In this document: piece by piece, positions 21,914 through 38,939 of the stretch
Position numbering within the stretch: the first letter of the stretch is position 1
Layout of the letters: the number at the start of each line of letters is the position of its first letter
Origin: Escherichia coli
GTDB taxonomy: Bacteria > Pseudomonadota > Gammaproteobacteria > Enterobacterales > Enterobacteriaceae
Strand: one strand, 5' to 3'
Assembly: GCF_003019035.1 (NCBI RefSeq)
Contig: NZ_CP027447.1
Length of the DNA stretch: 64,000 nucleotides
Translations under genes and position numbers: made by a program
The notes under the pieces: model-generated
Databases searched by the model: none
What the model was told of the DNA's origin: nothing
What the model saw: only the letters and a program-made list of their open reading frames with translations

Positions 21914-23161
21914 ATGGCTCTCACGGATATCAAAGTTAGGACTACCAAGCCCTCTGACAAACCCTTCAAACTTACTGATGGGCAGGGTATGCACCTCCTG
22001 GTCAACCCCAATGGTTCAAAATACTGGCGACTCCAATACCGTTTCGATGGCAAACAAAAAGTTTTAGCATTGGGTGTTTATCCAATGGTCTCTCTTGGTG
22101 AAGCTCGCAGGAAACGAGATGAGGCCAAAAAGTTGGTATCTGATGGTATCGACCCTTCCGAGAAGAAAAAAGCAGACAAGATCGAGCAGAGCGAAGCCCT
22201 GACATTCGAAGCTGTTGCAAGGGACTGGCATACTGCCTGTAAAAGGAAATGGTCAGATTCCCATAGTGAAAGGGTTTTAAAGAGCCTTGAAGACAACCTT
22301 TTCTCTTCCATAGGACAGAGAAAAATAGCCGAGCTTAAAACTAAGGATCTTCTCGAACCAGTCAAAACTGTTGCGGCTTCTGGACGACTAGAAGTAGCTG
22401 CTCGTCTGCAACAACGAACCACAGCAATCATGCGATATGCCGTCCAGAATGGCTTAATTGACTACAATCCAGCACAAGATATGTCTGGGGCAATTACAGT
22501 TGCGAAACGAACCCACAGACCAGCCTTACCATTTGATAGGTTCTCAGAGCTTTTAGAGCGCATTGAAAGCTTTAAAGGTAGGAAACTTACTAAATTAGTT
22601 GTGAAGCTGACATTGCTCATTTTTATCCGTTCCAGTGAACTCCGATTCGCAAGATGGTCGGAGATCGACTTTGAAAATGCGATGTGGACTATCCCTGGAG
22701 AACGCGAGCCATTACCAGGAGTCAAACATTCCCATCGAGGCTCAAAAATGAAGACCCCACACCTCGTGCCGTTAAGTCGTCAGGCCTTAGAACTTCTAAA
22801 AGTCATCAGAGAAATCAGCGGTGAATGCGACCTTGTATTCATTGGCGATCATGATTTCAGAAAACCTATGAGCGAAAACACAGTCAACAAGGCACTAAGG
22901 TCAATGGGTTATGACACAACCGTTGAGGTATGTGGGCATGGTTTTAGAGCAATGGCTTGTAGTGCTTTGATCGAGTCAGGAAAGTGGTCGAGAGATGCTG
23001 TTGAACGGCAGATGAGCCATCAGGAGCGGAACTCCGTTCGTGCCGCATACATTCATAAAGCTGAGCATTTGGACGAGCGTAGGTTGATGTTGCAGTGGTG
23101 GGCTGATTATCTTGATGAAACAACTAAGAGAAGAATTGCACCTTTCGATTTTAATAACTAA
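21914..23161 (+). CDS. P4-family tyrosine integrase (tRNA-associated)
   Basis: 415-aa protein with N-terminal Arm-type domain (MALTDIKVRTTKPSDKPFKLTDGQGMHLLVNPNGSKYWRLQYRF) and C-terminal catalytic region (..HGFRAM.., ..RAAYIH..); sits next to the tRNA as expected for IntB-like integrases. Confidence 0.9.
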   Translation: MALTDIKVRTTKPSDKPFKLTDGQGMHLLVNPNGSKYWRLQYRFDGKQKVLALGVYPMVSLGEARRKRDEAKKLVSDGIDPSEKKKADKIEQSEALTFEAVARDWHTACKRKWSDSHSERVLKSLEDNLFSSIGQRKIAELKTKDLLEPVKTVAASGRLEVAARLQQRTTAIMRYAVQNGLIDYNPAQDMSGAITVAKRTHRPALPFDRFSELLERIESFKGRKLTKLVVKLTLLIFIRSSELRFARWSEIDFENAMWTIPGEREPLPGVKHSHRGSKMKTPHLVPLSRQALELLKVIREISGECDLVFIGDHDFRKPMSENTVNKALRSMGYDTTVEVCGHGFRAMACSALIESGKWSRDAVERQMSHQERNSVRAAYIHKAEHLDERRLMLQWWADYLDETTKRRIAPFDFNN

Positions 23162-23230
23162 CTGATTTTTATAAGTAAAATGGCGTATTCAATAACCAAT
23201 TGAGACGCCATTTTTTTATTTGCGATTTAT

Positions 23231-24142
23231 GTGCTATTACGAAGTAAAGCTTTTTACAACGGAGTGGCATTAATGAAATCTTGGGTAAAAATGAATAGTT
23301 GGACATCAGAAGACACCAAAGCAGTGAAAACGTGGTTTGATTTGGACAAATATCGAGAGTTTGAAAACATTTCTATTAATATGCTTTACCATGAAATATG
23401 GGCGAGAACCTATTTTTTCAAACCAGTAATAGAAGAAGGAATGCAGAACACAGTATTGAAAAATTATATGCAGATATTGGATGGTGATCCTTTTCTTATC
23501 AAAGAGAAGCACTTAAATTATATGGATGCCGAAAATAAATTATATCAACCCCCATACTTTTTTATTACTACTGTTGATCGAATAGCAAATATCAGTTTTG
23601 ATTGTATGAGAAAGGCTTTATTCATTAGAGCAAATACAGAACAATATAAAATTGATTCCACTATTGAAAATGAATATATTTCCGAAAAAATTCCTGAACA
23701 GTTTCCTACTACGATTATGTTAGAAATCGATCTTGCGGGTGGAAGCGATGATGAGATAGCTGAGGCCCTGCGAGTATCATTACCACAATGGCGAAAAGTA
23801 AAAGGCGTTAAACCTGCACCACTTGATGCAGTCAGATTTGGTTATGGGGCAATAAAAAAATTAATTAGCTATCGAATTATTCCTATGCTTGATTTGCTCG
23901 CATGGTCAGAAAGAAAAAAAGTACTTCTGTCAGACGACAGATTATCTCGATTGCTATACACGGATGAAGATGATGATAAGGCGATTCGCCAAGGATATCA
24001 TATAAGAGATGCTGATCGGCCTTTCGCAATGAAAACTGTAGAAATTGATTTTTTAAGGCAATTTAACTTTTTTATCAATAAAAATCAGCATGTTAAAGAA
24101 ATGAGGGTTTCGGATGTTATGAAACTCTCAGATTCTGAGTGA
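23231..24142 (+). CDS. Hypothetical protein (303 aa), island cargo, no recognisable motif
   Basis: Long AT-rich ORF (GTG start in track; internal ATG candidates) between integrase and alpA. Confidence 0.5.
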   Translation: MLLRSKAFYNGVALMKSWVKMNSWTSEDTKAVKTWFDLDKYREFENISINMLYHEIWARTYFFKPVIEEGMQNTVLKNYMQILDGDPFLIKEKHLNYMDAENKLYQPPYFFITTVDRIANISFDCMRKALFIRANTEQYKIDSTIENEYISEKIPEQFPTTIMLEIDLAGGSDDEIAEALRVSLPQWRKVKGVKPAPLDAVRFGYGAIKKLISYRIIPMLDLLAWSERKKVLLSDDRLSRLLYTDEDDDKAIRQGYHIRDADRPFAMKTVEIDFLRQFNFFINKNQHVKEMRVSDVMKLSDSE

Positions 24143-24262
24143 TATGAATATCCAGAGACTCATAGTTTCGAGCCAAGGATGGCTCTGGTGTTCGTAATCT
24201 CGCTTCATCCATTCGAAATTCATTTGTACTGTAGCCCTGTAGACACAACAGAGGACATACAC

Positions 24263-24466
24263 ATGGAAAATCAAGCTCGTCTCATCCGTTTACCAGAAGT
24301 CATGAAGAAAACTGGATTTGGTAAAGCGTGGATCTATAGGCTTATCAGCAAGGGATGTTTTCCTCAACCAGTAAAAATTGGTCTTCGTGCAGTAGCTTTT
24401 GTAGAGAGCGAAGTAGATAATTGGATCCATGAAACGATTAGTTCTTCGAGAAATAAAGTTTCTTAG
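24263..24466 (+). CDS. alpA: AlpA-like phage/island transcriptional regulator (small HTH, 67 aa)
   Basis: MENQARLIRLPEVMKKTGFGKAWIYRLISKGCFPQPVKIGLRAVAFVESEVDNWI has the AlpA-family pattern (RLP.V...TG......Y......FP.P.K.G.R...W...E...W); the track ORF is extended upstream. Confidence 0.75.
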   Translation: MENQARLIRLPEVMKKTGFGKAWIYRLISKGCFPQPVKIGLRAVAFVESEVDNWIHETISSSRNKVS

Positions 24467-24913
24467 AAAATAAATAAAGAATATTAACACAAATTGTTAG
24501 ACTTTATGGTTGATGTTAATTAAGAGACGATTATGGTATATTAATATAATTTATGAGGTTGAATCCATTTTAAAAAATGGGGTAATAAAAAGGGGCTGTT
24601 TAGAAGCAATTACGCATTGTTATTCTAAATATGAACTAATTAATTATAAAATATCTTTTTTATTTTAAAATGATTATTGTGGTTCTTTCTTCAAATGTCA
24701 ATTTCCTTAACCTATTAAATTAGTGGATCACCGTAATGTATAAGAGTGAACCGTTTGTATTAGATTTTACTTATGAATATTTAGTCGTTTTCACTCAGGC
24801 ATCAAATTGTTGATGAATATATGTTGATTTTGATTCAAAACGAAATAGTCTATTTCTTATACATTTGATATAAAGGGTTATATTGGTATGCTGTACATCA
24901 GAAATGATATGCT

Positions 24914-25168
24914 TTATTTGTTTTTCGCTAATGCTACATATCGTCTATAATATGCAATTGCGCTATATTTTGTCGTATTCATTTTTTCAGCAACTTCTTT
25001 CCATTTTAAACCTGATGATCTTAGTTCAAAAGCAAGCTTTCTTTTTTCAGTTGCTACCCTTTCGTAATTCTCACGGCTAATGCCGTAATATTTTATCACT
25101 GTTGAACGAGATACACCTGCAGCCTTAGCTAAGTCTTTTGCTTTAATTAATTTCCCATGAATTATCAT
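24914..25168 (-). CDS. Small HTH DNA-binding protein (84 aa), co-transcribed downstream of the Rep-like gene
   Basis: HTH-like segment AKDLAKAAGVSRSTVIKYY; its start overlaps the stop of the upstream gene by 4 nt. Confidence 0.5.
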   Translation of the reverse strand: MIIHGKLIKAKDLAKAAGVSRSTVIKYYGISRENYERVATEKRKLAFELRSSGLKWKEVAEKMNTTKYSAIAYYRRYVALAKNK

Positions 25169-26013
25169 AATAATGCCTCCAATGCTATTTCTAATTTTTT
25201 TTGCGTTTTTCTTGTTTTTTTTGCTCTTATTGATTGTATTGTCGAAAATTTCTGAATTGAAAAATTACGCCATGTCCATTTACAAATACTGCTACAAATT
25301 TGTTTTGTCTCTTCATGAGATAATGGATTATGAGGGTTGCTATGATTATTAAGTAAAGTCGCTTTTGATAGCATATCATAAAAAAAACAACGATAGTTTT
25401 TACGTTTTTTAAAACTTAATACTTCTTTATAAGCAATAATTCTTAAATCTTCGAATAAGTTAACGTTGCGGCCCAACCCATGTATAACACTTTTCTTTTT
25501 ACTCGAAATTCTTATTTTGTCTGGGATAAAATCTAAGAGGTATTGTAGATCATATGCTGAAGTATTTGTCCATGTCGTTCTCCATTCATGAATGTTGAGA
25601 GGGTTTTTCATTAAAACATCAGCATAAGCTCTGTCTGCATCTAACCTTTCTGTAAATCCACTCTGAACAATAGCGGCCAATTTTAAAGGCTTATCTCTTG
25701 CCATGTCTGTTTTTAATACCGGATTTTTTAAAGCATAAAGTAAATGAGCATGGCCATTTTTTATGTTTTGTATGATCGTATTTGGTATTGGTAAACCAAC
25801 TAAGTCCCATGCGACCGCTCCATATTTGTGATCTATATCAAAAACCAAACCGTTAATAAAAGATTTGTTATTAAAACAAATATATTTCTTTAGAAGGGCT
25901 TTGTCTTTAGGGGCTCTGTATACCCCATCTCTAAAATCATCACAGCATAAAGCATATTTTTGAATTTGCAGCTTGTATTTTTCTACATTATATATATTTT
26001 CGTCATTTAACAT
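25165..26013 (-). CDS. Replication initiator-like protein (Replicase/primase-like N-terminal domain)
   Basis: 282-aa protein with FDIDHKYGAVAWDLVGLPIPN and NGHAHLLYAL (HxH) motifs reminiscent of plasmid/satellite Rep proteins; family assignment is by motif resemblance only. Confidence 0.5.
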   Translation of the reverse strand: MLNDENIYNVEKYKLQIQKYALCCDDFRDGVYRAPKDKALLKKYICFNNKSFINGLVFDIDHKYGAVAWDLVGLPIPNTIIQNIKNGHAHLLYALKNPVLKTDMARDKPLKLAAIVQSGFTERLDADRAYADVLMKNPLNIHEWRTTWTNTSAYDLQYLLDFIPDKIRISSKKKSVIHGLGRNVNLFEDLRIIAYKEVLSFKKRKNYRCFFYDMLSKATLLNNHSNPHNPLSHEETKQICSSICKWTWRNFSIQKFSTIQSIRAKKTRKTQKKLEIALEALL

Positions 26014-26561
26014 TTATAATCTCCTTATTGTATTCTCCATTTTATTGTATTTTTCTAAAAAGGAGATGCATATTATTTTTATAATTATTTAATAAGGGAT
26101 TTTAAAAGTTTGTCAAGTGTCTAAAAGCCATATCAGATATTAGGTGTTTCTTTTAGGGTTATAATAACAAGAGGGAGGTGCTTCAATGACAATATAAATG
26201 ATGATAGTTTTTTTTAAGTGCAGCTCATAAATCATTATGGCATATTGTAATATGATTACTTTTTATCTGATTAAAAGTAAATATCGATCGCAGATCTTTT
26301 AATTTAATTGTTAATTCAATAATCTGGTCTTGTCAAATTTTCATGGTTAAACTTCAACTTCCTTTATATACAAATCAGATATTTTAAATTTATAACAACA
26401 ATATTTGTAAGCCATAGGAGATATAGAATGTATAAGTTAATTTTTTTTCCAGTTAATACCTGTGATTGTTTTTATTTTGGCGATATAGTTCATTACTTGA
26501 CAATTTAAAAAAAGAATATATAAGTATTTAGATTGATATAGTTAAATTTAAGGATGGTACC

Positions 26562-26975
26562 ATGCAAAATACAAAGCTTAATATTATGGAGCGATATTTG
26601 ATACTGCTCGATAAGTTTGTCGATAAAATTATCGAATCAGGCGTTTCTGAACAACAATTGATCGAGAAGTCGTATCTGTTCTGTGCAGGGTATTATATTA
26701 AGTACCAGCAAGAAATTGAAAGGCTGACATTCTCAAATAAAGATGTCGTTTTAACATTTCTATTATTTTCATACTACAATTATATTAATGAGTTAGATAA
26801 TAATTTAATTAACAAAGTAAGGATGAGGAGAACATGTTCATTACTTATTAATTTCATTGTCGATAATGGTAGTCAGACAGAAAAAATTTATGTGCAGGAA
26901 AAAAAGAAGTACAAATCTTATACATTGAAAAGGGATTTATCAGTAAAGAATAAAAGGAAAAAATATGGTTTATAA
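26562..26975 (+). CDS. Hypothetical protein (137 aa)
   Basis: AT-rich ORF with plausible RBS (AAGGATGG) a few bases upstream; no recognisable motif. Confidence 0.4.
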   Translation: MQNTKLNIMERYLILLDKFVDKIIESGVSEQQLIEKSYLFCAGYYIKYQQEIERLTFSNKDVVLTFLLFSYYNYINELDNNLINKVRMRRTCSLLINFIVDNGSQTEKIYVQEKKKYKSYTLKRDLSVKNKRKKYGL

Positions 26976-27292
26976 CAATATGAAAACTTCCGTGATTTGA
27001 ATTTAAGGCTTTCACCTTATTATCCGATGCCTACATGAAAAATGCCAAAACTTACATAGCTTGCTCCAGCACAAGCAATGTAGAAATCAACTTTATCTCC
27101 TTTAAACATAATCGTGATTGTTTCGTTGCTTCCATGGAGTACCGATGGCAGGGATTTATATCGTTGTCTGGGACTGACCGTTATGCTTATTGTATAAACA
27201 TTTATCTTTGCTGCCAGAAGGGCTCAGACTGTAAGATTCGATAAGGATGCTAACATATTCTATTCGCGATTTTACCGTTCAAGATTTTAATT

Positions 27293-27964
27293 TTAAAATT
27301 GTATTGACTTAATAACGCTTCTGAGTGCGTTATCAAATCTTTGGCTTCTTCTCTTTATCCATTTAATGCAGGTAAAGCTTCCAAGTCGTGAGGCAAAATA
27401 GGTTAACCACATATATTTGTGTTCGTCAAAAACATATCCAGATTTAAACCCCCATGGCAATACAAAAAATGAAATAATCGCAATGCAACAAAGCAAGATA
27501 AATATGGTGGAAAAAAATTTAGGAACAGGCATCGCCCTATAATAAAATGCCATCGAAGCGTTAGGGAAAAGTACGGTGAGAAACGCAGGGATAATAATTG
27601 TCTTTCTATTTAAGTTGACTTCGTATTCACCCGTGGTTGTATTAACAATGAGAGCATCTTTGAAGGCACTAAATGAACCATTAACTCTATACTGGCGAAG
27701 CTCGTATTTACAAATTTTGTGAGATTTTATAAATGTGATACCAAAGGCTGGAATCTGTGTCTCATCCCCCGTATCGGTTTTAACCCAAACTTGGTCAGTA
27801 ATTGGGAGGGGACTGATGACAGTAGCAGAAAAGGTCTCAACGAACATGTAGGTTTCGCCGAACAACTCGAATTTAGGTGTTGTCATCTCAGCTTTCGTTT
27901 CCCGGCGACTTAACGGGTCAATGTTAACTTCTTTATTGCAGTGTTTCGTGATGGAGCTGCTCAT
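27293..27964 (-). CDS. Hypothetical protein with C-terminal transmembrane segments (223 aa)
   Basis: N-terminal soluble region followed by hydrophobic stretches (IIIPAFLTVLFPNASMAFYY, FSTIFILLCCIAIISFFVL). Confidence 0.45.
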   Translation of the reverse strand: MSSSITKHCNKEVNIDPLSRRETKAEMTTPKFELFGETYMFVETFSATVISPLPITDQVWVKTDTGDETQIPAFGITFIKSHKICKYELRQYRVNGSFSAFKDALIVNTTTGEYEVNLNRKTIIIPAFLTVLFPNASMAFYYRAMPVPKFFSTIFILLCCIAIISFFVLPWGFKSGYVFDEHKYMWLTYFASRLGSFTCIKWIKRRSQRFDNALRSVIKSIQF

Positions 27965-28249
27965 ACAAATTCCTATGTTTAAGATGAAATCAGATTCGAT
28001 GATGTATGAAATCGTTCAGTTCCAAAGATGGAATAATGTCTGCCATTTCCAGTACCGGTGCATTAATGAAAAGGATATAGACTAGTAAAATCATAATGTT
28101 AGCATTACAGTGTGAACTAACATTTTGACTAGGTTTACAGGAAACGCAAATCACTTGTACCGATCGATTAACAAATAATGATAGATTATAGCTATCAGTC
28201 TATCTTTATCGATCGGTATAAACGATCAATTTTAGGGGTATGTTGCTTA

Positions 28250-29518
28250 CTAAAATCTACATGTAAGGTGGTAATGTTGCCTTGGCGGCACTAAATTGCC
28301 GTCAAGTAAAGGCTCCACAAAAGTGTTTTTGGGATTGATGGGATGGATTTCTATCTTCATCGCTTCAGTGATGACTTGGTGCTTTGCGGGGCGTCTAAGA
28401 ATTGGGATTTTAAGTTGTCTCAGCAGACGATAAATCGTATCAAGGTAAGGGATGGTTTCCATCCATCTGAATGCTGAGACCTCGTAGCTTTGATTAGGCA
28501 TCTCTTTTACGGCTATAGTAGCTATCGCTTTCTTACTCCCTGCTAAAGCTTCCGAGGAACACTTCTCTTCTACATAAGCGACAGCACTTTCGTCTTTACC
28601 TGCATGCCTATCAATAATAAAAGCTTCGAAGGAGTTTTTAACGTTTTCCTTTAATATTTCGTTTGGATTCGCTTTAGTGATAGTTGCTTTTAGGTCAAAC
28701 AGAAAGCCGTTATCGCGTTCTGGTCTATAATCGAGTTTACCCTGCAAGGTCGACCATGAATAACACTTAGCTAATTGCGAAGCTTTGAAAGCAATCCCGG
28801 CGTATTCGAATGAGAAACCATTCATTTTACCTGTAGATGTGATATTGGGTAATGCATTAATATTTTGTTCAAAAAGCTGTTGGACAAACTCAGTGGTCGA
28901 TACTCTTTTAGAAACTAACGTCTCTAAAGCGTTCTGGATGATGGTTTTTGGGCATTGTTCACCTGTCCTTTTCTCTTGCATCGCTTCATTTCGTGTTTTT
29001 TTTCGTTTTAGTTTAGGGCAGGGCAATGCTAAAGAGGTTTTTGTTTTAGGGCCTTTGGTTCTTAGTAGCGAATAGTCGTGTTCAAGCTGTTGGATAATGC
29101 GTGTACTAATCAGGTTTTCATTTTTTCCGAGATAGAGTTTGCCTGTAATACGGTCTATGCGGCTGGCGATAATGTGGATGTGTTGACCGACCGCATCGTC
29201 ATGCAACACGTAGCATCTGAGATGCGTTTCCGAGAAGCCGATGCGCTTCATATAGTCATCAGCTATAGCGGACCACTGAGCATCGGTTAGCACTTCGTCC
29301 TTTGGTAAACGAAGCGAATTGTGCCAAACAGGTTTATCCACATCAGGGCGAAGCGTTTTTGTTAGATTGAATTCAGTGATCAGATCTTTCGCTGCACACC
29401 CATCCATATTTCCCCCGATCACGACAGGAGCTACCCTATGATGAGAATCTGGTTTTAACGTATAGAGGACGATCCCGATAAAATTCTTACCTCTGCGGAT
29501 CTTTTGCATTCCCTTCAT
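28250..29518 (-). CDS. Mobilization relaxase (MobA/MobL-type)
   Basis: Relaxase three-histidine motif HDDAVGQHIHIIASRID (HxDx4HxH); probable start MKGMQKIRRG at 29518 (track ORF extends to 29569); overlaps the upstream mobC. Confidence 0.75.
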   Translation of the reverse strand: MKGMQKIRRGKNFIGIVLYTLKPDSHHRVAPVVIGGNMDGCAAKDLITEFNLTKTLRPDVDKPVWHNSLRLPKDEVLTDAQWSAIADDYMKRIGFSETHLRCYVLHDDAVGQHIHIIASRIDRITGKLYLGKNENLISTRIIQQLEHDYSLLRTKGPKTKTSLALPCPKLKRKKTRNEAMQEKRTGEQCPKTIIQNALETLVSKRVSTTEFVQQLFEQNINALPNITSTGKMNGFSFEYAGIAFKASQLAKCYSWSTLQGKLDYRPERDNGFLFDLKATITKANPNEILKENVKNSFEAFIIDRHAGKDESAVAYVEEKCSSEALAGSKKAIATIAVKEMPNQSYEVSAFRWMETIPYLDTIYRLLRQLKIPILRRPAKHQVITEAMKIEIHPINPKNTFVEPLLDGNLVPPRQHYHLTCRF

Positions 29519-29924
29519 CGGAGTCTCCCCACAAGTCGGCGGTGATGAGATGTAAGCGAAGATCGGCAATTTGTCGCTTCACTGCAAATAGTTCCGTTTT
29601 TGTCAGGTGGCTTCCGGTACTTTTGTTATCAAGGTGGGCAACAATTTTATTTAGTTTCTGTGAAAGGTCAGCTAAAGATCTCCATGCTTTTATATTAATA
29701 GCTGGAACAACACCAGGAAGCGCATTAAGAAAAGATAAACGAAGCCATTCCCCTTTGCGATGCTGGCCACGTTTTTCATTTAGAAGCGTCAGCTCTTTAT
29801 CATTAAGCCTGACACTGACGCAATGATTACGAATTTGCTTGCGTGAAAGCTTCGTTTCGCAAGAGCTTCTACAGGAAGCTCGCGTATTTATAATAGTCTT
29901 ATTGAAATTATTATTACTGACCAT
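29487..29924 (-). CDS. MobC-like relaxosome accessory protein
   Basis: 145-aa basic protein with a MobC-like LSQKLNKIVAHLDNK motif (similar to the NLNQiARhlN signature), immediately upstream of and overlapping the relaxase gene. Confidence 0.6.
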   Translation of the reverse strand: MVSNNNFNKTIINTRASCRSSCETKLSRKQIRNHCVSVRLNDKELTLLNEKRGQHRKGEWLRLSFLNALPGVVPAINIKAWRSLADLSQKLNKIVAHLDNKSTGSHLTKTELFAVKRQIADLRLHLITADLWGDSDEGNAKDPQR

Positions 29925-30053
29925 ATTAACCTCTTTTTAAATATATAAATAAAAATATTATTTTATTTATATAATAAAATAGTCAGATGTCAATATACAT
30001 GTATTATATTGATTTTAACTTTTTTCAACTGAAAGGCGAAAAAACAAGGGGAA

Positions 30054-30085
30054 ACTCAATGAAGCAGCGTAGCGCTTCGTTGAGT
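30054..30085. promoter_or_regulatory. Candidate oriT inverted repeat upstream of mobC
   Basis: ACTCAATGAAGC...GCTTCGTTGAGT near-perfect inverted repeat (11/12 arms) in the AT-rich leader of the mobC-mobA operon. Confidence 0.4.
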
Positions 30086-30148
30086 TAGCCCTTGCTTTAA
30101 CAATATTGACCAAAATCTCTTTTTAATATAAAATGAATCCTAAGAGGG

Positions 30149-30724
30149 ATGGAGGTATACATGCTCAATGATAATAAAATTCGCACTGCATTAATAAATT
30201 TTTTACTGGCTAAAAAACCAGCGCCAGAAAGGATTATTGAAGAATTGCATATCGAGAACGGAAGAGCAATAGCTGATGTCGTAGCAGCATATAGTTATTT
30301 GCATTGCTACGAGATTAAAGGAGAGACTGATTCAATTGGAAGAATCCTTACTCAAGCTAATTATTATAATACTTCTTTCAACAAAATTACACTTGTAACT
30401 ACAAAAAATCATTTAACATGGGCATTAAAGCGTTCCCCATCCTTCTGGGGAATCATATTAGTAGAATTAAAAGATAATAACATTACTTTCAAATATATAA
30501 GGGGGGCTAAAGATAATATTTTCTTCAGAAAAGAAAATGCTTTCATGATGTTATGGAAGGACGAAATGTTGAAGGTAGCAAATGAAGCCTCTGTACCAGT
30601 TAAAAGATCACACACGAGGATGGAAATAGCCGAAATGCTTAGTAGTTCGCTTAAGAAAAGTGATGCTTTGCAAACTATACAAAGCATCATATCTAATCGA
30701 CTAAAATTAAGGGATGCAGTGTAA
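30149..30724 (+). CDS. Hypothetical protein with PD-(D/E)xK nuclease-like signature (191 aa)
   Basis: Motif ..ENGRAIADVVAAYSYLHCYEIKGE.. (hydrophobic-D ... E-I-K) matches the PD-(D/E)xK core pattern; convergent with and overlapping the 3' end of the three-gene operon. Confidence 0.5.
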   Translation: MEVYMLNDNKIRTALINFLLAKKPAPERIIEELHIENGRAIADVVAAYSYLHCYEIKGETDSIGRILTQANYYNTSFNKITLVTTKNHLTWALKRSPSFWGIILVELKDNNITFKYIRGAKDNIFFRKENAFMMLWKDEMLKVANEASVPVKRSHTRMEIAEMLSSSLKKSDALQTIQSIISNRLKLRDAV

Positions 30725-31822
30725 AACAAACTTAATATGTGAAGTCAGCATGGCTTTAATCCAGGATGAGGGATTACCTGCTTTATCTGGTTTTTTAGGC
30801 GAATAACTACTTCTATCATAAACATATTGTTCCCCATATGAGAATGTAGTTGCCCTGAAGAATTTTTGGTCATGGATTATTGTGGCAATATCATAATATT
30901 GACCATTTCCTCTCTCATCATTCTGGAAAGATCCACCTCTAACACAAAACATATTATTCTTATACGTATAAAATACTTTTGGTGCGGAAACTTTTCTAAA
31001 TAGCTTCGGATCTAAATCTATATCAGAATAATCAGGGCTAACAATTCCATAATCCCCGTATATAATATTACCAATTTTCTTTTCGTTAACTAATGTGTCC
31101 CAAATTTTCCACTCCGCTCTCGTGAACGATTTTCTTTGATAGGTTTCAAGTAATGAGGAAATATTAGCCGGTATCGAAGAGGCTGATATAATGCACTTAT
31201 CAAAGTGAAAGTCTTTATTTACATTTAGAATAAAGTATTCAGCCATGTCAGTTAGTCGCTTTATGTCAGTTGGCTGAATGTATCGTAGATCTATAATTAA
31301 GTGCAATTGTTCTACTTTCAGATTTCTAATGATTACCATCATCTTCAAGAGATGCATTTTTGTTATTTTATAGCTCTCAATATCTTCAGCAACTAACCTT
31401 ATGGCTAATTTCCCTCCGTTAATTGATAGGCTATCGTAAACACTTTTATTGTGTTTCTCTAATCGGTTGATACCGATCACAGGAATATATAAGTAATCAC
31501 GAAAAAGAGATAGTATATATTCGTATTGCTCCACTCCATCAATTAATATTTCATCATCCAGGTCATAATTATCTATGTAAAATTCCATGTTTTTAAATAA
31601 AGCTTTATTATCCAATCTCTTTTTGAAAGAATGAGCTTTATTCAATACATTTTCCATTGTTTGATTATTTGATTCTCTTGGTATATCGAAGAATGGAGTG
31701 ATTTGTGTGAAGATTGTAGCATCTTTTTTGTAAAGCTCTTCGAGGGCTTGAGTTTCGTTGCTTTTTGCTTTTAAAAATGGGATATATTTACTCATTGAAA
31801 CCAAGCTCCCTTCTGACATCAA
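30707..31822 (-). CDS. Hypothetical protein (371 aa), third gene of the ImmA-containing operon
   Basis: Long AT-rich ORF whose start overlaps the stop of the ImmA/IrrE gene; no recognisable catalytic motif. Confidence 0.6.
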   Translation of the reverse strand: MMSEGSLVSMSKYIPFLKAKSNETQALEELYKKDATIFTQITPFFDIPRESNNQTMENVLNKAHSFKKRLDNKALFKNMEFYIDNYDLDDEILIDGVEQYEYILSLFRDYLYIPVIGINRLEKHNKSVYDSLSINGGKLAIRLVAEDIESYKITKMHLLKMMVIIRNLKVEQLHLIIDLRYIQPTDIKRLTDMAEYFILNVNKDFHFDKCIISASSIPANISSLLETYQRKSFTRAEWKIWDTLVNEKKIGNIIYGDYGIVSPDYSDIDLDPKLFRKVSAPKVFYTYKNNMFCVRGGSFQNDERGNGQYYDIATIIHDQKFFRATTFSYGEQYVYDRSSYSPKKPDKAGNPSSWIKAMLTSHIKFVLHCIP

Positions 31823-32717
31823 TTGAATTAACTAAACTTGAGAAGATAACATAATTTTTGTGTTTATTTCTTACCGCACCAGCAGCGATTATTGGGTGTA
31901 TATTAAATCTTTCGCAGACAGATATTAGACTATCAGGTTCATTAAATGTCCGAAAGACAGCTCTATTTGCTTCTCTGGGTATCAGACTATCAGCTGCGGC
32001 TCTGTTAGCCTCAATCTCTACGTCTGTTTCTGTGTCAATGTCTAAATCATCGAGGATTGGCGTATCTAATTTATCATAGTGCAGAGCAATGTGGGATAAT
32101 TCATGCATTAATGTAAACCAAAAGTAATCATATCTCGAATATCTTAAACTTAGACCTATGACTGGTGTTTTATTTGGTAAACAAAAGGTACAGCCATCTA
32201 ACTTCATACCTTTGAATGATTTTTCAATTATTAGAATAATACCATATTCTTCTTTAAGGATTCTTGAAATATAATGAATAGATTGTACATCCCTGCTCAA
32301 ACTTGCAATTATTCCGAGGTTTTCAAAATCCAGATCTGTGAAGACCTTTGTATTTCCTTTTAAATAGGTGTTTAATGACTTTTTTTCTATTAATGATAAC
32401 CATAAATTTATGAGTTCAGAATTAGCATCATCTCTTTTTCTAAATAGTTTATTTTTGTTAAATGTTAAATTTTTTGCTACATCAAGTAGGAATTGATTTT
32501 CGTTTTCCATTTCTGGTTTACGGGAAATAATATCTTTTATTTTTTTGCTGTTTTTTATCTTTTGGAAATTTAGTAAAATTTCCAAATCAGACTCACTAAA
32601 CTGATTTGATACAAAGAAATCTTTCTCATGCGGCATTTGAAATTCCTCCGAGAGTTGATGCGACAACCTGTGATGCCTCATAAAATCGGAGATTTTCTTT
32701 TTCATGGTCGACGCCAA
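31788..32717 (-). CDS. ImmA/IrrE-family Zn-metallopeptidase (COG2856-type) with ~190-aa N-terminal extension
   Basis: HExxH motif WFTLMHELSHIALH followed by the third zinc-ligand region EIEANRAAADSLIP, characteristic of ImmA/IrrE peptidases. Confidence 0.8.
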   Translation of the reverse strand: MASTMKKKISDFMRHHRLSHQLSEEFQMPHEKDFFVSNQFSESDLEILLNFQKIKNSKKIKDIISRKPEMENENQFLLDVAKNLTFNKNKLFRKRDDANSELINLWLSLIEKKSLNTYLKGNTKVFTDLDFENLGIIASLSRDVQSIHYISRILKEEYGIILIIEKSFKGMKLDGCTFCLPNKTPVIGLSLRYSRYDYFWFTLMHELSHIALHYDKLDTPILDDLDIDTETDVEIEANRAAADSLIPREANRAVFRTFNEPDSLISVCERFNIHPIIAAGAVRNKHKNYVIFSSLVNSIDVRRELGFNE

Positions 32718-33273
32718 AATCAGTCATGCCAAGATGGTTATAGAAACCCTCTGCACTTGGGAGTGCATGTAGGCAAAAACCAGGTCTATACCCCCAGTTT
32801 GAACAGGCATAATTAATTGTATGTTGGATAAGCTCTTTGCCTACTCCACTATATTTAGGGGTAAAGTTAGGACGAGGACGATTCCAGTATGCTGTTGCAA
32901 TATAATCCACGTAGAAAATTTTATTATTATCAAATCGACTTTCTTTTGGATGGTAAAGAACACAAACACCTTGAACTGCGTCGTTTATTTGCAGAAAAAA
33001 CCACTGATAATCATCACCATTACATTGCAAAAGCTTGCGGCACCAGTCCCAATGCCAATCAGAAAGGCTGTTATCTGCCAGAATTTTCCTTGCTAACTCG
33101 TTATCAGTGGCCATACCGGGGTTAGCAGTAATTAGAGCTGACAATAAATCAGCACGATAGGCACCCCATTTGCTCTGCAAGTCAACCACTTTAGCATAGT
33201 CAATCCCTACGTGAATTTGGTAATCAACTGATTTTCCTGAACAATTTTCAACGACCATAAGCTCCCTTTCCAT
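32626..33273 (-). CDS. GNAT-fold acetyltransferase-like protein (215 aa), first gene of the operon
   Basis: GNAT-like motifs ..FYVDYIATAY..RP.....GVGKELIQ.. and ..SAEGFYNHLGMTDFG..; its stop overlaps the start region of the ImmA gene. Confidence 0.5.
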   Translation of the reverse strand: MERELMVVENCSGKSVDYQIHVGIDYAKVVDLQSKWGAYRADLLSALITANPGMATDNELARKILADNSLSDWHWDWCRKLLQCNGDDYQWFFLQINDAVQGVCVLYHPKESRFDNNKIFYVDYIATAYWNRPRPNFTPKYSGVGKELIQHTINYACSNWGYRPGFCLHALPSAEGFYNHLGMTDFGVDHEKENLRFYEASQVVASTLGGISNAA

Positions 33274-33505
33274 TGTGTCGGCTCATTTTGACTAATAATA
33301 CAACTTTATAGTCTTTAAGAATGCTCTGCTGGTCAAATTTCTTATTTGATCTATAGAAGGCTATGTTTTGAAGCTGGTTGTTAATCTGGTTATGATGTGG
33401 TCATATTAGAATTGGTAAATCAAACCAATTTTGTTGGTATGAATGATGGTATCTTCGCTAATGTAATATGCTTTATTCACTAAAAATCATAAGGATAGTT
33501 GCGAT

Positions 33506-33529
33506 GTTCGAGTCCGGCATCCGCACCAC
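33506..33529 (+). repeat. Degenerate direct repeat of the leuX 3' end (candidate att site at the distal island boundary)
   Basis: GTTCGAGTCCGGCATCCGCACCAC versus leuX GTTCGAGTCCGGCCTTCGGCACCA: 13 identical bases followed by 8 of 11 matching with one gap. Confidence 0.5.
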
Positions 33530-34203
33530 ACTGTATGCAAATCGAGTCGCTCAAGAGCGGCTTTTTTTGTGTCTGAAATCACCCATATCCGTGCAGTATA
33601 TAGGCCTGCCAGAAAAGCAATTCAGTATTCTTCATTTTGTAGTCGATGGTCCCAAGTTTGCTCTGGCTGGAAGCTGCATCGTCCACATTACGTGGGCAGG
33701 GTGGTTTCGCTATGCTACTTGAACGTTTTGACCATGTGGCTCAGGTAGCATATCAAAAGACGTCATTTTGTCTCCACGCCCACCTTGGTGAACATTCAAT
33801 AAATAGTTTCGGTCGAGAGCAGTTATGTAGGGCTAGCAGACGAAATGCGCAGACATCTTGTTGAAGACAATTTTACTGACCACCTGAGAACGCTATTCTA
33901 CCGAATAATATTTATTATCTTGGTGAATAATGATGATTACCTGTGTAACTATGGTTTTATGCTGATGGGACCGGCAGTACAATTTCTGTAGTGTACTCGC
34001 AATTTCAGGTCTCTGGCGTTTATTCTGGTGCAAAGGATGTATGTGATGAAAACTTTGCTACCATGCCATTAAATGCGACCAATATCGGATTATCCATCAG
34101 TTGCTTGTTGTAGATTTCATTGGTTATAAAAATGCAAGGTGTAAAAGATGAAATTTATAATTATTAGTTAAGTGGCTAGTTTTATAGTAATTTAGACAAT
34201 AGG

Positions 34204-36252
34204 ATGTATGGAAAAATGGAAAAAGTTTATGATACCACTAGAATTAGTAATCTTGCTAACGACCCGAAACAGTTTTGTTCTTTTTTTTGTGAGTACATAA
34301 AAAGAGATGATATTAGTATAGATATCGCCTTGGATGTGCTGAGAATATCTTCCATCTATTATAATAGATTTTCAGTTCAGACTGAAGTTGAGTATAACAA
34401 TACATTCAAAAAATGTATTAATGAGCTAGTAAACTCATTTCCTGATAACATTGAACTAATCTCTGAGTTCGAGAGTCAATGTAAAATTATGCATGATATA
34501 AATAATTCTTTCTTTGCGGCTACAAAATGTGCTGGTATTTGGCGTAAAAATACAAAAAAATCACATGCATTAATACTTAATCTCATCATGTTTTGTGAGA
34601 TGTTTTTATCATTATTATCATCCTTGGTTGTGGTCAATGATCCTAAAAAAATGAAGAGGATTTTTCCATTGTTTATCGTTTCTGAAAATATTAATATTCA
34701 TGCTGAACCTGATATCGAATATTTTCGAGTTATCGATAGGGCATTTGATGAGGTAGCCAATTACACCGGAAGAATATTTTCTTATTTACGGACTCATGGG
34801 CCATTGAAACTAACTTCTTGTGTGAATAAACAAACCTTGCTTTCAATGGGAGGGTACCTTAATGAGTGGAATGTTTTTGACTCATTAAGCAGAGTAAGAG
34901 ACTTTTTCAGACTAAGTAGTGCAGTATTTACAAAATTGGATAATAACATTTACTCTCTTGAGGTTGATAGTTTTTGTTTATACCGAGATTATGAGATTGC
35001 AAGAAATAGACTAATGATGAGAGCGTCACATCTATATAGCGAAGTTCATGAATTTAGTAACAAACATTTTCATCTAAATAGTTGGGTAAAGGATCATATG
35101 CCATCTTACTTAAATTCTGATGGCGTTTTTAGCTCATTTCATCTAAGCGAGTTGGAAAATATGTCTCCTGATGACCTTCATGAAGAATATGGGAATATAT
35201 CATTATTTAATTGGGTGCACGCTTATCAATGTTTAGTCGAGTTATCTAAAGAAGAAATGAGCAAAAGATTTTCATCGACAAAACCTATACCCCTACAGTT
35301 GGATCGCTGGCTGATCATAAAAAGCCGTGAGAGTTGGTTATCATTCTTTCAACGTAAGGGGATTGCAGTAGATGCAGCAAAAAAACTGATAGATTATTTT
35401 ACCTTCAATTCAAAATCACATGATCTTAATGATTGCCCATTTATTCCCTGTATGGACGGTTTATGCTTAATGCCTGCATTAATAGCAAATAGCTCAGTGA
35501 CTCGCTCTCTAATGTCATTATTTGGTTCCAAAAAAATTTCTCAAGCAAGTAAAGGGCGATTTCATGAGCAACAATTTATAAAACAAGTTCGTGATGCGGG
35601 GATTAAAGCTTCTCCAATTGATGCTCATGCTAATTATCAGTGCGATTGCGTGATTCTCCTGGATGATTGTTTGATTTTTACAGAACTAAAATCAAATGGT
35701 CAACCAATATATTATGGTAAGTACTATCAGCAAGTGTGTAACATCGTTGGAGATAGCTCATTAATACATGATCATAATAATAAATTTATGCGTTCTTATT
35801 TTCAACAAATAAATCGAATTTCTGAACATTATCTTAATCATCTTAATGTGATCATTAAAGAATTCGAACTACCATCAACATGGCAACCCAAAGGTGTGTA
35901 TAAGCTTATTGTTACTACAACTATGCTCGGTGGGAAATATCATGTGGATGATACATATGTAGCGGACAAATATGCATTATCTAGTTTTTTTCAACGAATA
36001 CCTGGAGTGATATATCAAACAAATGAAAATGGAAAAATGGCGAAAAATATCATTGATGGGTTTGAGTGTTGCGAAGGGGAAATCACTATCGATAAGTTTA
36101 TAGATTATCTTTCCTCTTTGCCCAGTATTAATGCTGTACGTAAAAATATAAAAAAATTAACTTATAGTGTTCGATTTAATGAAAAATTAGTCCATCACCC
36201 TTATTATGATTCTTGGGCTTTTGGCCCATATATTCGTAAGGGAAATGATTAG
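34204..36252 (+). CDS. Large hypothetical protein (682 aa), AT-rich, possible C-terminal PD-(D/E)xK-like motif
   Basis: Uninterrupted 2 kb ORF with strong terminator downstream; C-terminal stretch CDCVILLDDCLIFTELKS has a D...E.K pattern; otherwise unrecognised. Confidence 0.6.
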   Translation: MYGKMEKVYDTTRISNLANDPKQFCSFFCEYIKRDDISIDIALDVLRISSIYYNRFSVQTEVEYNNTFKKCINELVNSFPDNIELISEFESQCKIMHDINNSFFAATKCAGIWRKNTKKSHALILNLIMFCEMFLSLLSSLVVVNDPKKMKRIFPLFIVSENINIHAEPDIEYFRVIDRAFDEVANYTGRIFSYLRTHGPLKLTSCVNKQTLLSMGGYLNEWNVFDSLSRVRDFFRLSSAVFTKLDNNIYSLEVDSFCLYRDYEIARNRLMMRASHLYSEVHEFSNKHFHLNSWVKDHMPSYLNSDGVFSSFHLSELENMSPDDLHEEYGNISLFNWVHAYQCLVELSKEEMSKRFSSTKPIPLQLDRWLIIKSRESWLSFFQRKGIAVDAAKKLIDYFTFNSKSHDLNDCPFIPCMDGLCLMPALIANSSVTRSLMSLFGSKKISQASKGRFHEQQFIKQVRDAGIKASPIDAHANYQCDCVILLDDCLIFTELKSNGQPIYYGKYYQQVCNIVGDSSLIHDHNNKFMRSYFQQINRISEHYLNHLNVIIKEFELPSTWQPKGVYKLIVTTTMLGGKYHVDDTYVADKYALSSFFQRIPGVIYQTNENGKMAKNIIDGFECCEGEITIDKFIDYLSSLPSINAVRKNIKKLTYSVRFNEKLVHHPYYDSWAFGPYIRKGND

Positions 36253-36275
36253 AGCAATTTATTATATAGTCCATG

Positions 36276-36330
36276 TTATTCACTGATTATATTATTGATA
36301 ATATAATCAGTGAATAACTCTAATTTTTTT
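36276..36330 (+). terminator. Rho-independent terminator after the 682-aa gene
   Basis: 17-bp perfect inverted repeat TTATTCACTGATTATAT / ATATAATCAGTGAATAA (36276-36317) followed by a T7 run at 36324-36330. Confidence 0.7.
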
Positions 36331-36650
36331 AATGTTGGGGTTTAGCCTGAAGTTGAAATTGGTACTACGGAACGGTATGATCATATCGCATCAAAATATC
36401 AAGGTAGTGATGATTTTCTACGCACCGATCCAGAAATGTGGATTTTATCATCACCATAAGCAATGGCAGCGACAACACCATCAATTTCTATATCAAAGGT
36501 GGTAAAATAAATTAGAAAATTGTTTATTTAATCCATTAGCGATAAGTTTTATTGTTATTTAGCCGAGATATATTCCATTGAAAAAAGTAAATTGGCACTG
36601 ATATTATATCAAATGGGAATAATCCTTTTGTAAATAAGCTGAGGAATGTG

Positions 36651-36830
36651 TTAATTCACATCCAGCGCCTTATAAACCGCATCAACCGGTTCTGAGTAAA
36701 AACTTACCTGAAACTTGGTAAACAACTCTGCCGGAACTGTTGGAATATCCATAGCCGAGGATATCGGCAACAGAACTCGTTTTGCGCCGCTATCGAAGGC
36801 GAGTTGTAAACTAGCGGCAAGATCCTGCAC
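36651..36830 (-). pseudogene. Orphan 3' gene fragment (about 59 codons), probable remnant of a deleted gene
   Basis: Minus-strand frame translating ..VQDLAASLQLAFDSGAKRVLLPISSAMDIPTVPAELFTKFQVSFYSEPVDAVYKALDVN-stop with normal GC content but no upstream continuation; adjacent plus-strand fragments are also present. Confidence 0.3.
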
Positions 36831-36874
36831 TGATTATGTCAGCAATATTGAACATACTGCGATAGTTATCAACC

Positions 36875-37747
36875 TCACCCCCTAAAAACCTCTTTCCGAT
36901 GCCACTCCACAAATCCCTCATAAGGGTAATTTTTACGTACCTGCGGCAACGCAATAGTTTTCCCGTCAAAATCCCAGAATAGTTTCTCAACGATCCCTCC
37001 GCCGTTTACCGCATCTGATACCAGTACCCGCATATTTTCATCCAGGCCAATCGATCCTTTATCAAAGGCTTTATGGTGTATTGCACAAAGCGCCAGACCA
37101 TTAGGAATTTCACAAGGACCGCCGTGCTGTTTCCATTTTATATGCGCCGCTTCCAGCGCGACGGTGGTGTCGTCGTGGCGCATATTAAAGCCACATATCG
37201 CGCACTGGTAGTTATAAGCGCGTAATACATTTTTGCGAAATAACGGGTCGCGCTGTTTACGGATTTGCTGGAGATCAAAACCCAGTTCGTCAGCAATTTC
37301 TTCCTGAATACTCTCGGTGAAGTGCGCTTCGAGTATCTGTTGCGCCAGAGTATTGATGAGTTTTTTATTGCCAGTTACCAGGGCGTAGTGCTGTTCATCG
37401 AAACCGCCTGCAACGTGGTATTCAGTCAGTTCCTTCACTGGTGGTTGTCGGCTGCTCCCTGCTGTTGAGCAAAGCCCGGCATTGTGTAATTGCCAGAATC
37501 CGTCGCCTTGTAATCGCCAGAACGGCATATCAGGTCGGTACTGTGAACGCTGTGGCCCAAAACGTTCCAGTAAATTGTGCAGAGGTTCGTAGATTTCCGA
37601 TCCATAATCGAAAAGGCGCGGATGCCCATTCAGGTATCCCGCTAATACGTATAGCAGTAACAATGGTTTATGCGGCGCGCGCTGTTCACCCTTGTGCCAG
37701 ATTTTTATATTGGCAATTGCCTGCTGTAGCGATTTACTGGAAGCCAT
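36875..37747 (-). CDS. HNH-motif endonuclease with N-terminal DNA-recognition domain (candidate modification-dependent restriction enzyme)
   Basis: C-terminal His-Me finger CAICGF...HIKWKQHGGPCEIPNGLALCAIHHKAFD; probable start MASSKS at 37747 (track ORF extends to 37804). Confidence 0.7.
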   Translation of the reverse strand: MASSKSLQQAIANIKIWHKGEQRAPHKPLLLLYVLAGYLNGHPRLFDYGSEIYEPLHNLLERFGPQRSQYRPDMPFWRLQGDGFWQLHNAGLCSTAGSSRQPPVKELTEYHVAGGFDEQHYALVTGNKKLINTLAQQILEAHFTESIQEEIADELGFDLQQIRKQRDPLFRKNVLRAYNYQCAICGFNMRHDDTTVALEAAHIKWKQHGGPCEIPNGLALCAIHHKAFDKGSIGLDENMRVLVSDAVNGGGIVEKLFWDFDGKTIALPQVRKNYPYEGFVEWHRKEVFRG

Positions 37748-37958
37748 TGATATCCCTGGCAGTGAAATAATTGCGATCATGCTCGCAAATTTTCTGCTGT
37801 TCAAGCCTGCAAGTGAAGATATATTACCTTGATCTCATTTGTTTTTTTGCTGCCTGTGTACCCTAATTGCCATGCGATGTTGCACCGACGCAAACCACCG
37901 TTTACGCCGGAGGAGTTAAAAGCGCTGATGGATGCAAATAAATCAAATTAATGAACGC

Positions 37959-38939
37959 TCACCTTTCGCGCCAAAACCGCAAAATTGCTTCTACAAACCT
38001 GTCAGAAATAATCCCCCGACGGGCTGCCGCGCTGAAATGACTGCTTCGCAGTGCCGTCGTCCAGTTCTCCGGTGACCGGTACGCTGAACCGTAATATCCC
38101 GTGCTTAAATCGTCCGGGTCTTCAACAGGCGCGTTCGTCAGTCCTCTTTCACCTTGTTGCTGGAAGTCGACGAAAATAATATTGGCTAAAACATTATTTT
38201 GATAATTGCCATAAATAGCTTCATACGCATGAGGGAAATTTTCTTTCCAGTACCAGGTGGTATCGCCGCAAAACCACGGCGCGTCAGTAATATTATTAAG
38301 CTGAGAATGGTATTGTTTTAGATCCCTACGAAAGGCTTCAACCATATGATTAAAGTGTTGAGGGTGTGACGCGTAGTCACTGGTCATTAAGTCAAATTCG
38401 CCTTGCATCCAGCATACGCCGAGGAATTTGTTCTGCGGATTTTTTGCCAGTGCGGCTCGCGTTCTGCTGACTAAATCCTGGTATAGCGGAGTATCCGTTC
38501 CCCAACGACAAGCATCATGGCTGGCTCCGTGCCGTTCTGAATATGTCCCTTCGCTGCCCGCGGTAAAAGCCGATCCGCCACGGCAACACGGAACGATGAG
38601 AACCCCTGCATTATCAGGAATGAAGGGCAGTAATTTCCGTGCAATATGCAGTGCCTGGCCAACGGTGCCGTACTGTGTTTGATGATTCGTTGCCAGAGGA
38701 TGGTGATAACCCTGCATATCCTGAACATCGTGTGGGCAGTGAGTCAGTGGAATAATGTCGTTAAAGTGACATGACGGGCCTCCGGGATGCGTATGCGCAA
38801 ATCTCGCTAATTGTTTAATTCTGGGATGAGGCGCATCTTCCCCGTCCGGTAATGGCAGTCCTTCGCCATACGCCATGGCATTAGACTGACCAGCAACGGT
38901 AAGAACATAGTAATAATCGGGCGATATTATCGCGTTCAT
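37959..38939 (-). CDS. nanS: 9-O-acetyl-N-acetylneuraminate esterase
   Basis: 326-aa MNAIISPDYYYVLTVAGQSNAM...; SGNH-like esterase next to nanM-nanC. Confidence 0.9.
   Translation of the reverse strand: MNAIISPDYYYVLTVAGQSNAMAYGEGLPLPDGEDAPHPRIKQLARFAHTHPGGPSCHFNDIIPLTHCPHDVQDMQGYHHPLATNHQTQYGTVGQALHIARKLLPFIPDNAGVLIVPCCRGGSAFTAGSEGTYSERHGASHDACRWGTDTPLYQDLVSRTRAALAKNPQNKFLGVCWMQGEFDLMTSDYASHPQHFNHMVEAFRRDLKQYHSQLNNITDAPWFCGDTTWYWKENFPHAYEAIYGNYQNNVLANIIFVDFQQQGERGLTNAPVEDPDDLSTGYYGSAYRSPENWTTALRSSHFSAAARRGIISDRFVEAILRFWRER

Follow-up and report, generated by a model that had tools for sequence, protein, structure and literature searches.

We analysed a stretch of 64,000 nucleotides of Escherichia coli DNA (assembly GCF_003019035.1, contig NZ_CP027447.1; hereafter the window) with a focus on positions 33,506 to 36,874, where an imperfect copy of the 3' end of the tRNA gene leuX is followed by an intact nuclease gene and the remains of several others. 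E. coli is also the source of the flanking genes and of all best DNA matches of the window. The leuX gene itself, a tRNA-Leu(CAA) gene identified with ARAGORN, lies at 21640-21724 on the plus strand, and its 3' part (21701-21724) is the core of the left attachment site (attL) of an integrated island. Next to it stands a gene for a P4-type tyrosine integrase of 415 aa (21914-23161, plus strand), which possesses the Pfam domains Arm-DNA-bind_3, Phage_int_M and Phage_integrase and matches NCBIfam PRK09692 with an E-value of 5e-73, yet remains under the curated cut-off of that model. The current island is mobilizable, extends over 11.8 kb (21725-33505) with a G+C content of 35.5%, and encodes a relaxase, a replication initiator, and PD-Lambda-2-like and cII-like defence proteins; a copy that is 96.8% identical and has annotated replication-initiator and relaxase genes is present in E. 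coli S19-651. Its right boundary is at 33505/33506. Beyond this boundary the window contains, from left to right, the displaced leuX end, a remnant of a HipA-family kinase gene, the nuclease gene, a scar composed of pieces of a PLD-like gene and of the BREX gene brxL, and a gene for a phosphorothioate-dependent (PT-dependent) restriction endonuclease.

The displaced leuX end, GTTCGAGTCCGGCATCCGCACCAC, is located at 33506-33529 on the plus strand and occurs only once in the window. It agrees with leuX 21701-21713 in the first 13 bases, and the remainder can be aligned to the end of the tRNA gene with a gap of one base (CCTTCGGCACCA in leuX, CATCCG-CACCA in the repeat), i.e. 13 exact bases are followed by two substitutions and a 1-base deletion. 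A repeat finder likewise pairs 21701-21718 with 33506-33523 (family D17). In other strains the same position is occupied by GTTCGAGTCCGGCCTTCG-CACCA, and the exact 18-bp repeat GTTCGAGTCCGGCCTTCG was found at the junction in FDAARGOS_144 and FDAARGOS_1283. The junction is shared by strains with unrelated islands: FDAARGOS_144 harbours a relaxase/methylase island next to the same repeat and flank, and FDAARGOS_1283 and the uropathogenic E. coli (UPEC) strain 536 share the junction with islands of the pathogenicity island (PAI) II type, which include Ag43 and CbtA/YeeU-type modules.

At 33544-33570 (plus strand), just past the repeat, a terminator scan and folding both revealed the native intrinsic terminator of leuX, which is now cut off from its tRNA gene by the island. 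In strain ES5, caccgtatgcaaatcgagtcgctcaagagcggcttttttt, an intrinsic terminator, stands directly behind an intact leuX, and the flank of ES5 corresponds to the sequence that follows the repeat in the window with 98.7% identity from 33506 to 37857. In a set of 5426 complete E. coli genomes, on which all genome counts given here are based, the terminator flank is present in 1894 genomes and adjoins either leuX or the right attachment site (attR). A 301-bp probe across the leuX/flank junction of ES5 found full coverage in 110 genomes, and about 330 hold the whole segment from 33.5 to 37.2 kb. Approximately one third of the carriers are consequently free of an island, and in about two thirds some island is located between leuX and the flank.

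A first-pass annotation of this DNA had noticed a degenerate repeat resembling the 3' end of leuX, and had named coincidence, together with fragments that lack homologues, as the outcome that would overturn its reading. The origin of the repeat from leuX is borne out, since the exact 13-mer is shared only with leuX in 64 kb and the gapped remainder extends the match. A fortuitous likeness could be argued from the fact that exact identity covers only 13 bases and that the rest needs a gap and two mismatches. However, the 13-mer occurs just twice in the 64 kb, at leuX and exactly at the end of the island, the next ~50 bases represent the native terminator flank of leuX, and other strains have less degenerate, exact 18-bp versions at this point. 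In island-free genomes the DNA that here follows the repeat is the native flank of leuX; the likeness therefore goes far beyond chance, and we regard coincidence as practically negligible. To judge from these comparisons, the current island has its attR at 33506-33529, and this repeat is not an additional or older attachment site. The features of such a site occur together here: a distal partial repeat of the tRNA gene, an Arm-domain integrase beside the intact tRNA gene, and empty sites in 110 genomes.

The closest experimental counterpart is PAI II536 of UPEC 536, which is flanked by 18-bp direct repeats (PMC9686529) and whose site-specific integration at leuX by its P4-like integrase was experimentally shown (PMC3202238). 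Excision by recombination of attL with attR to a circular intermediate has an experimental basis for PAI II536 only (PMC3202238). PAI II536 and the island in the window share the tRNA gene, the type of integrase adjoining leuX, and the register of the repeat, which starts at GTTCGAGTCC in the T-loop; moreover, the flank to the right of PAI II536 is identical, with the HipA remnant, the nuclease gene, the brxL scar and the PT-dependent endonuclease. They differ in that PAI II536 is a ~100-kb pathogenicity island whereas the window contains a small, 11.8-kb mobilizable defence island, and in the two extra substitutions of the attR in the window, which leave 13 exact bases as compared to 18. The published leuX-flanking primers (M803b and M805c; PMC3202238) map to 21500-21522 (exact) and to 33776-33796 (minus strand, one mismatch), which places the sequence right of the repeat in what the literature treats as chromosomal context. 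In our reading the P4-type integrase inserted the 11.8-kb island into the 3' end of leuX, which rebuilt the tRNA gene at attL and shifted part of the tRNA 3' end, as a second copy, along with the leuX terminator 11.8 kb downstream. The displaced copy is degenerate and not subject to selection.

The first-pass annotation had further proposed that the DNA beyond the repeat is foreign and reflects successive integrations or a decayed older island, with more att-like repeats to be sought near 36.8-37.9 kb. Under this explanation the segment 33530-36870 would be a second, older leuX island and the repeat the boundary between the two. Tandem arrays do exist at leuX: S19-651 carries this island and, next to it, GTTCGAGTCCGGCCTTCGCACCA, another flank and a second integrase with its own island. 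The segment is, furthermore, accessory (about 330 genomes), AT-rich in part and full of pseudogene remnants, and BREX-bearing strains retain decayed integrase fragments between leuX and BREX. A second attachment site was, however, found nowhere downstream of the repeat: beyond 33529 the window contains no other instance of the 13-mer, even when up to 2 mismatches are allowed, no repeat of this kind lies near 36.8-37.9 kb, and a blastn-short search of the window and four related loci with the 45 terminal nt of leuX gave no match downstream of 33529, the comparison loci holding either their own leuX only (L003, L004) or a single attR only (L001, L002). Likewise, neither an integrase nor a fragment of one is present in 33530-36870, among the open reading frames (ORFs) or among the annotations of the segment in relatives. 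With no second site and no integrase, a tandem tRNA-integrated island is unsupported in the window. Moreover, in 110 genomes intact leuX and its terminator run directly, with no integrase, into this 3.3-kb segment, which therefore lies on the chromosomal (B') side of the attachment site. We consider a tandem older island quite improbable. The flank may nevertheless be what remains of a very old island that has lost both its integrase and its attachment sites, a point that counts against a purely resident origin. The "foreign-looking" character of the DNA was thus correctly perceived in so far as it is accessory and partly AT-rich, and the presence of older, decayed remains (HipA, PLD-like, brxL) is confirmed, whereas a second element bounded by attachment sites is not: what was observed was largely right, and what was concluded from it half right. 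As an observation on the array of S19-651 itself (L015 5138-18496), the second island there carries a P4-type integrase together with a Ser/Thr kinase and a HerA helicase and forms a true tandem arrangement at leuX.

The first gene remnant of the flank, which the first-pass annotation had missed, lies at 33694-33991 on the plus strand and represents part of the C-terminal domain of a HipA-family kinase in two reading frames that a frameshift has separated. Stitched together, the two frames match positions 65-146 of Pfam HipA_C (E-value 5.7e-5), and in a large protein database the remnant is 75% identical to a 111-aa "HipA domain-containing protein" of E. coli; searches of NCBIfam and the PDB with it produced no match. 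It always travels with the downstream nuclease gene (333 genomes), and a distant DNA search identified no intact parent gene in E. coli genomes. In contrast to HipA kinase toxins it comprises only ~100 codons, is frameshifted, and lacks both the N-terminal domain and a hipB partner. This stretch is a pseudogene remnant and not an intact kinase toxin.

At the other end of the flank, the first-pass annotation had listed short gene fragments in both orientations, among them a 3' fragment of ~59 codons with normal G+C content, and had proposed to find their parents in protein databases. Parents were identified for two fragments. The ~59-codon fragment (36651-36830, minus strand, 46.7% G+C) consists of the last 59 codons and the stop codon of brxL, the Lon-like gene of BREX type 1; it matches the PADLOC BrxL profile at positions 623-680 of 680 (E-value 1.7e-19) and TIGR02653 at positions 617-675 of 675 (E-value 3.8e-24), and DNA matches to annotated brxL genes agree. 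The second fragment (36368-36552, minus strand) is what is left of the first ~60 codons of a PLD-like (phospholipase-D-like) gene and has an 85% DNA match to the PLD-like gene beside brxL in strain 2013C-3250. The fragment has ATA in place of the ATG start codon, and its frame is disrupted by single-base indels. Both identifiable fragments are thus on the minus strand, contrary to the claim of two orientations. Taken as a whole, the 463-bp scar (36368-36830) is 85% identical to a contiguous PLD-spacer-brxL piece of 2013C-3250, all of it on the minus strand. It is followed by a 35-bp filler (36831-36865), delimited by alignments with L004 and LR-28, that forms the junction with the right flank and is identical in LR-28. 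On the plus strand, a 57-aa ORF at 36332-36505 was also considered; it matches nothing in PADLOC or NCBIfam, is mostly antisense to the PLD remnant, and is regarded as a chance ORF. Rfam searches of 33300-37100 gave sub-threshold hairpin noise only.

The scar reproduces the order and orientation of complete BREX type 1 clusters, namely the 3' end of brxL, the spacer and the 5' end of the PLD-like gene. It differs from them in that 463 bp are left of roughly 16 kb, from which no function is possible; from the six-gene set (brxA, brxB, brxC, pglX, pglZ, brxL) the window retains only the last 59 codons of brxL. The complete clusters that were sampled share 85-94% identity with the scar, so the one lost here was a different allele. 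In 2013C-3250 and ECOR29 the immediate left neighbour of the PT-dependent endonuclease gene is a complete BREX-1 cluster, and 11PC has a partly deleted BREX cluster at this position; all three strains possess decayed integrases nearer to leuX. LR-28 exhibits an identical brxL scar and filler, but has a type II restriction-modification (R-M) pair at the left instead of the PLD remnant and the nuclease gene. The truncation of brxL is consequently older than the cargo on its left, which has been replaced at least once. A deletion of ~15 kb (14.7 kb in comparison with 2013C-3250), extending from inside brxL to just before the endonuclease gene, would have removed the 5' part of brxL, pglZ, pglX, brxC, brxB, brxA and one further gene, and in a separate replacement on the left side the PLD-like gene would have been cut short and the nuclease cassette would have taken its place. 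We infer this order of events from a handful of genomes, which weakens the reconstruction.

These findings place the segment in a well-described setting. The leuX gene anchors E. coli defence hotspot 37, where BREX and PT-related systems occur, and in which defence genes were found in 97% of isolates and BREX in 9% (PMC12707154). The window represents the same locus, with an integrase at the tRNA end and with a set of interchangeable systems, among them BREX and PT-related restriction. It differs from the published hotspot in its decayed state, with a scar as the only trace of BREX, and in its unclassified nuclease, which is not among the systems listed for the hotspot. The pattern of decay fits deletion and cassette replacement inside this known hotspot. 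We therefore think it highly probable, as one joint reading, that the repeat is the attR of the current island and that the sequence to its right (33530-36870) is a chromosomal, resident flank of the leuX hotspot with a HipA fragment, a nuclease gene and a BREX/PLD scar, rather than a second island. This flank haplotype is present in ~6% of complete E. coli genomes, including UPEC 536; the avian pathogenic strain APEC O1 is also a carrier. The attachment scar and the gene debris are textbook features of an integration and defence hotspot, and the whole is an ordinary, well-explained state of leuX. What leads beyond it is the intact nuclease gene, which is conserved and well modelled and has no above-threshold match in Pfam, NCBIfam or PADLOC.

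The first-pass annotation had described this gene as a 682-aa orphan. The ORF does exist (34204-36252, plus strand, 32.8% G+C), and we place the start of the protein at 34216, giving 678 aa, in line with the RefSeq annotation, with the allele of L001, which lacks the upstream ATG, and with distant relatives that align from that methionine. An orphan it is not. Although the 682-aa protein itself has no match in Pfam or NCBIfam, close relatives (75% identity) occur in E. coli and Salmonella, and Izhakiella, Xenorhabdus, Pectobacterium and Pantoea are among the sources of more distant ones (40-56% identity). When 1.84 billion cluster representatives were searched with a profile, 360 relatives were retrieved, corresponding to 360 clusters at 50% identity from Proteobacteria and Firmicutes, most of which are 600-700 aa long and align from end to end. 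Among 76 family sequences (17-55% identity) P412, G451, D481, E494, K496 and D588 are invariant and E455, C480, Q535 and R538 nearly so, a set of residues that constitutes an E...D...ExK nuclease signature. The Pfam family NERD (PF08378) is matched by 7 of the 76 members at E<=0.001 and by 15 at E<=0.1.

The structural model points in the same direction. AlphaFold predicts the protein with a pLDDT of 92 and a pTM of 0.91, as a helical part (1-440), an alpha/beta core of the NERD-like PD-(D/E)xK type (~445-600), the nuclease domain having a restriction-endonuclease-like fold, and a small C-terminal domain. Full-length structural matches in AFDB50 are proteins labelled "NERD domain-containing" in UniProt (query-normalised TM-score 0.67-0.96), from Bacillus, Paenibacillus, Listeria, Streptococcus, Legionella, Agrobacterium and other hosts. 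In the PDB, Foldseek recovered only Upx (PDB 9wuf, E-value 1.4e-5), and the family profile found nothing meaningful among PDB sequences. The gene is followed by its own terminator-like hairpin (36275-36318), a perfect 21+21-nt palindrome and a T-run, which was also found in the terminator scan and folds with -24.4 kcal/mol (z -5.9). In summary, the 682-aa ORF is an intact, conserved gene of a widespread, unstudied family of ~650-aa NERD/PD-(D/E)xK proteins, neither an orphan nor debris.

The relatives of this gene are solitary, with no conserved partner. For example, one relative adjoins a type I R-M system and a Cap4 nuclease, one is part of the cargo of a Tn7-like element next to Gabija, and one shares an integrase element with genes for a KAP NTPase and Mrr. 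Others were found at the end of a prophage beside a pPIWI protein, together with AbiU2/Abi_C, and, in Pseudomonas, beside a prophage or island integrase. On plasmids, tblastn gave only 5 distant matches, in Bacillus, Priestia, Exiguobacterium and Fusobacterium. We propose the nuclease as a candidate stand-alone defence gene. As an anti-phage effector, its N-terminal helical domain would hold the C-terminal nuclease inactive until infection, upon which the released nuclease would cut nucleic acid. Such an effector would have two precedents. Upx is a single-protein PD-(D/E)xK anti-phage system for which a phage protein serves as the activator (PMC13099982). ZwsA, a stand-alone RNA endonuclease of Pseudomonas aeruginosa with a NERD domain, is directed against RNA phages (bioRxiv 10.64898/2026.04.06.716636).

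Both precedents show differences from the protein in the window. Upx has 1212 aa and two nuclease domains as compared to 678 aa and one, there is no match between the two at the level of sequence profiles, and the ~205 residues that superpose are 12% identical, so that only the nuclease fold is in common. ZwsA is described as a protein of ~730 aa with VHS, DUF647 and S4 domains whose target is the RNA of RNA phages. Pfam found neither DUF647 nor S4 in the 76 family members, and VHS likewise was not found. The catalytic residues reported for ZwsA (E535, D567, E580, K582; bioRxiv 10.64898/2026.04.06.716636) occur with this numbering in no collected family member, as judged from a second profile search and residue numbering.

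Alternatively, the nuclease could have no part in defence and act as a factor of DNA repair or recombination, as the toxin of a degraded toxin-antitoxin pair (it stands beside the HipA remnant), or as a selfish passenger. Several observations are easier to reconcile with such a role and weigh against the defence proposal. The protein has no match to a validated defence family: PADLOC-DB 2.0.0 gave no significant model match, only 50 residues aligning to PDC-M29B (E-value 0.0012), and tblastn against phage genomes did not find the gene. There is no conserved partner gene, one relative is surrounded by housekeeping genes and shows no island signature, and the gene of ES5 (L003 4714-6749) is annotated as frameshifted, so it can be lost. 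The E. coli alleles differ at 1-14 positions per pair, which is too few to estimate the ratio of nonsynonymous to synonymous substitutions (dN/dS). In addition, the role of the NERD domain is unclear in most proteins. On the other hand, the relatives are repeatedly found as solitary genes inside defence clusters and mobile-element cargo, the gene occupies the most occupied E. coli defence hotspot (PMC12707154), in a slot that elsewhere holds BREX, its catalytic residues are invariant across 76 divergent members, and Upx (PMC13099982) and ZwsA (bioRxiv 10.64898/2026.04.06.716636) document that single-protein PD-(D/E)xK effectors exist. A role outside defence appears possible to us, if on the whole rather doubtful.

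For the defence proposal itself our confidence falls a little short of even. In its full form it states that the 678-aa gene belongs to a single-gene anti-phage nuclease family with a sensor-like helical domain of ~440 aa, may be related to ZwsA, and is carried by ~6% of E. coli in the BREX slot. If this tentative assignment were true, the gene would add to the leuX hotspot of E. coli a member of a widespread, unvalidated family of this kind. As the nuclease often occurs in defence islands or mobile-element cargo, it is a cheap and well-defined candidate for phage-challenge testing.

A further peculiarity concerns the displaced leuX ends themselves. In all that were examined the same G is missing (CCTTCGGCACCA to CCTTCG-CACCA), namely at 33506-33529 in the window, L001 9076-9098, L002 9023-9045 and L015 17010-17032. 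The loss is found in two different contexts of the right flank, and the same flanks carry GG where they complete a functional tRNA gene; in the flank survey all full-length matches outside tRNA genes span no more than 79 nt, not 80. Either the crossover takes place at the extreme 3' end and an imperfect copy derives from the island's own attachment site (attP), or the G is lost recurrently. According to the former explanation the degeneracy of the repeat would be inherited from attP and the imperfect copy would always be island-derived. It could account for the absence of one and the same G in the window, in FDAARGOS_144 and FDAARGOS_1283 and also at the inter-island junction of S19-651, whose right flank differs, as well as for the length of at most 79 nt instead of 80. 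Yet the published restoration of leuX on re-integration (PMC3202238) speaks for a crossover within the 18-bp repeat, left of the missing G. Moreover, S19-651 lacks the two extra substitutions of the window in an island of the same family, which is what local decay would predict. We therefore judge an origin from attP unlikely. In either case, the constant loss of this G offers a simple way to map the crossover of the leuX integrases.

Some minor observations may be added. In another family of leuX islands the integrase-proximal arm (L004 12484-12532; L015 17033-17080) mimics the native downstream flank of leuX with ~78% similarity, including the terminator hairpin, and presumably provides a terminator for the rebuilt tRNA gene. 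Within the current island, the defence-type cargo is situated near the right end (30149-32717) and comprises proteins similar to PD-Lambda-2 B and C (E-values of about 1e-47, PADLOC) and a protein resembling cII of the gop-beta-cII type; in RefSeq these genes are named sce7726 family, beta family and ImmA/IrrE. A 20-nt motif, TATTGNTNANATAATCAGTG, builds up the palindrome of the nuclease terminator (36281-36312) and recurs with 17 of 20 bases exactly at the truncation junction of brxL (36828-36847); LR-28, a strain without the palindrome, has this junction copy as well. The recurrence could be due to chance or could be a footprint of the recombination that made the deletion.

Finally, the right flank continues with the gene for the PT-dependent endonuclease, an HNH restriction enzyme that binds phosphorothioated DNA (36875-37804, minus strand). 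It matches NCBIfam NF045808 with 437 bits against a cut-off of 180, is annotated in RefSeq with 873 nt within an ORF of 309 aa, and is present in 2181 of the genomes. Further to the right (37846-38939) the window resembles UPEC 536 in that a gene for a 216-aa HNH endonuclease is cut down to a fragment of ~105 bp and nanS (326 aa) is intact; FDAARGOS_144 and ES5 display the reverse state, with an intact HNH gene and a truncated nanS. In LR-28 (L013 11004-15184) most of nanS/nanM, right of the PT-dependent endonuclease gene, has given way to a type II Zorya system (zorA2, zorB2, zorE), which indicates that the variable zone extends past the endonuclease gene.

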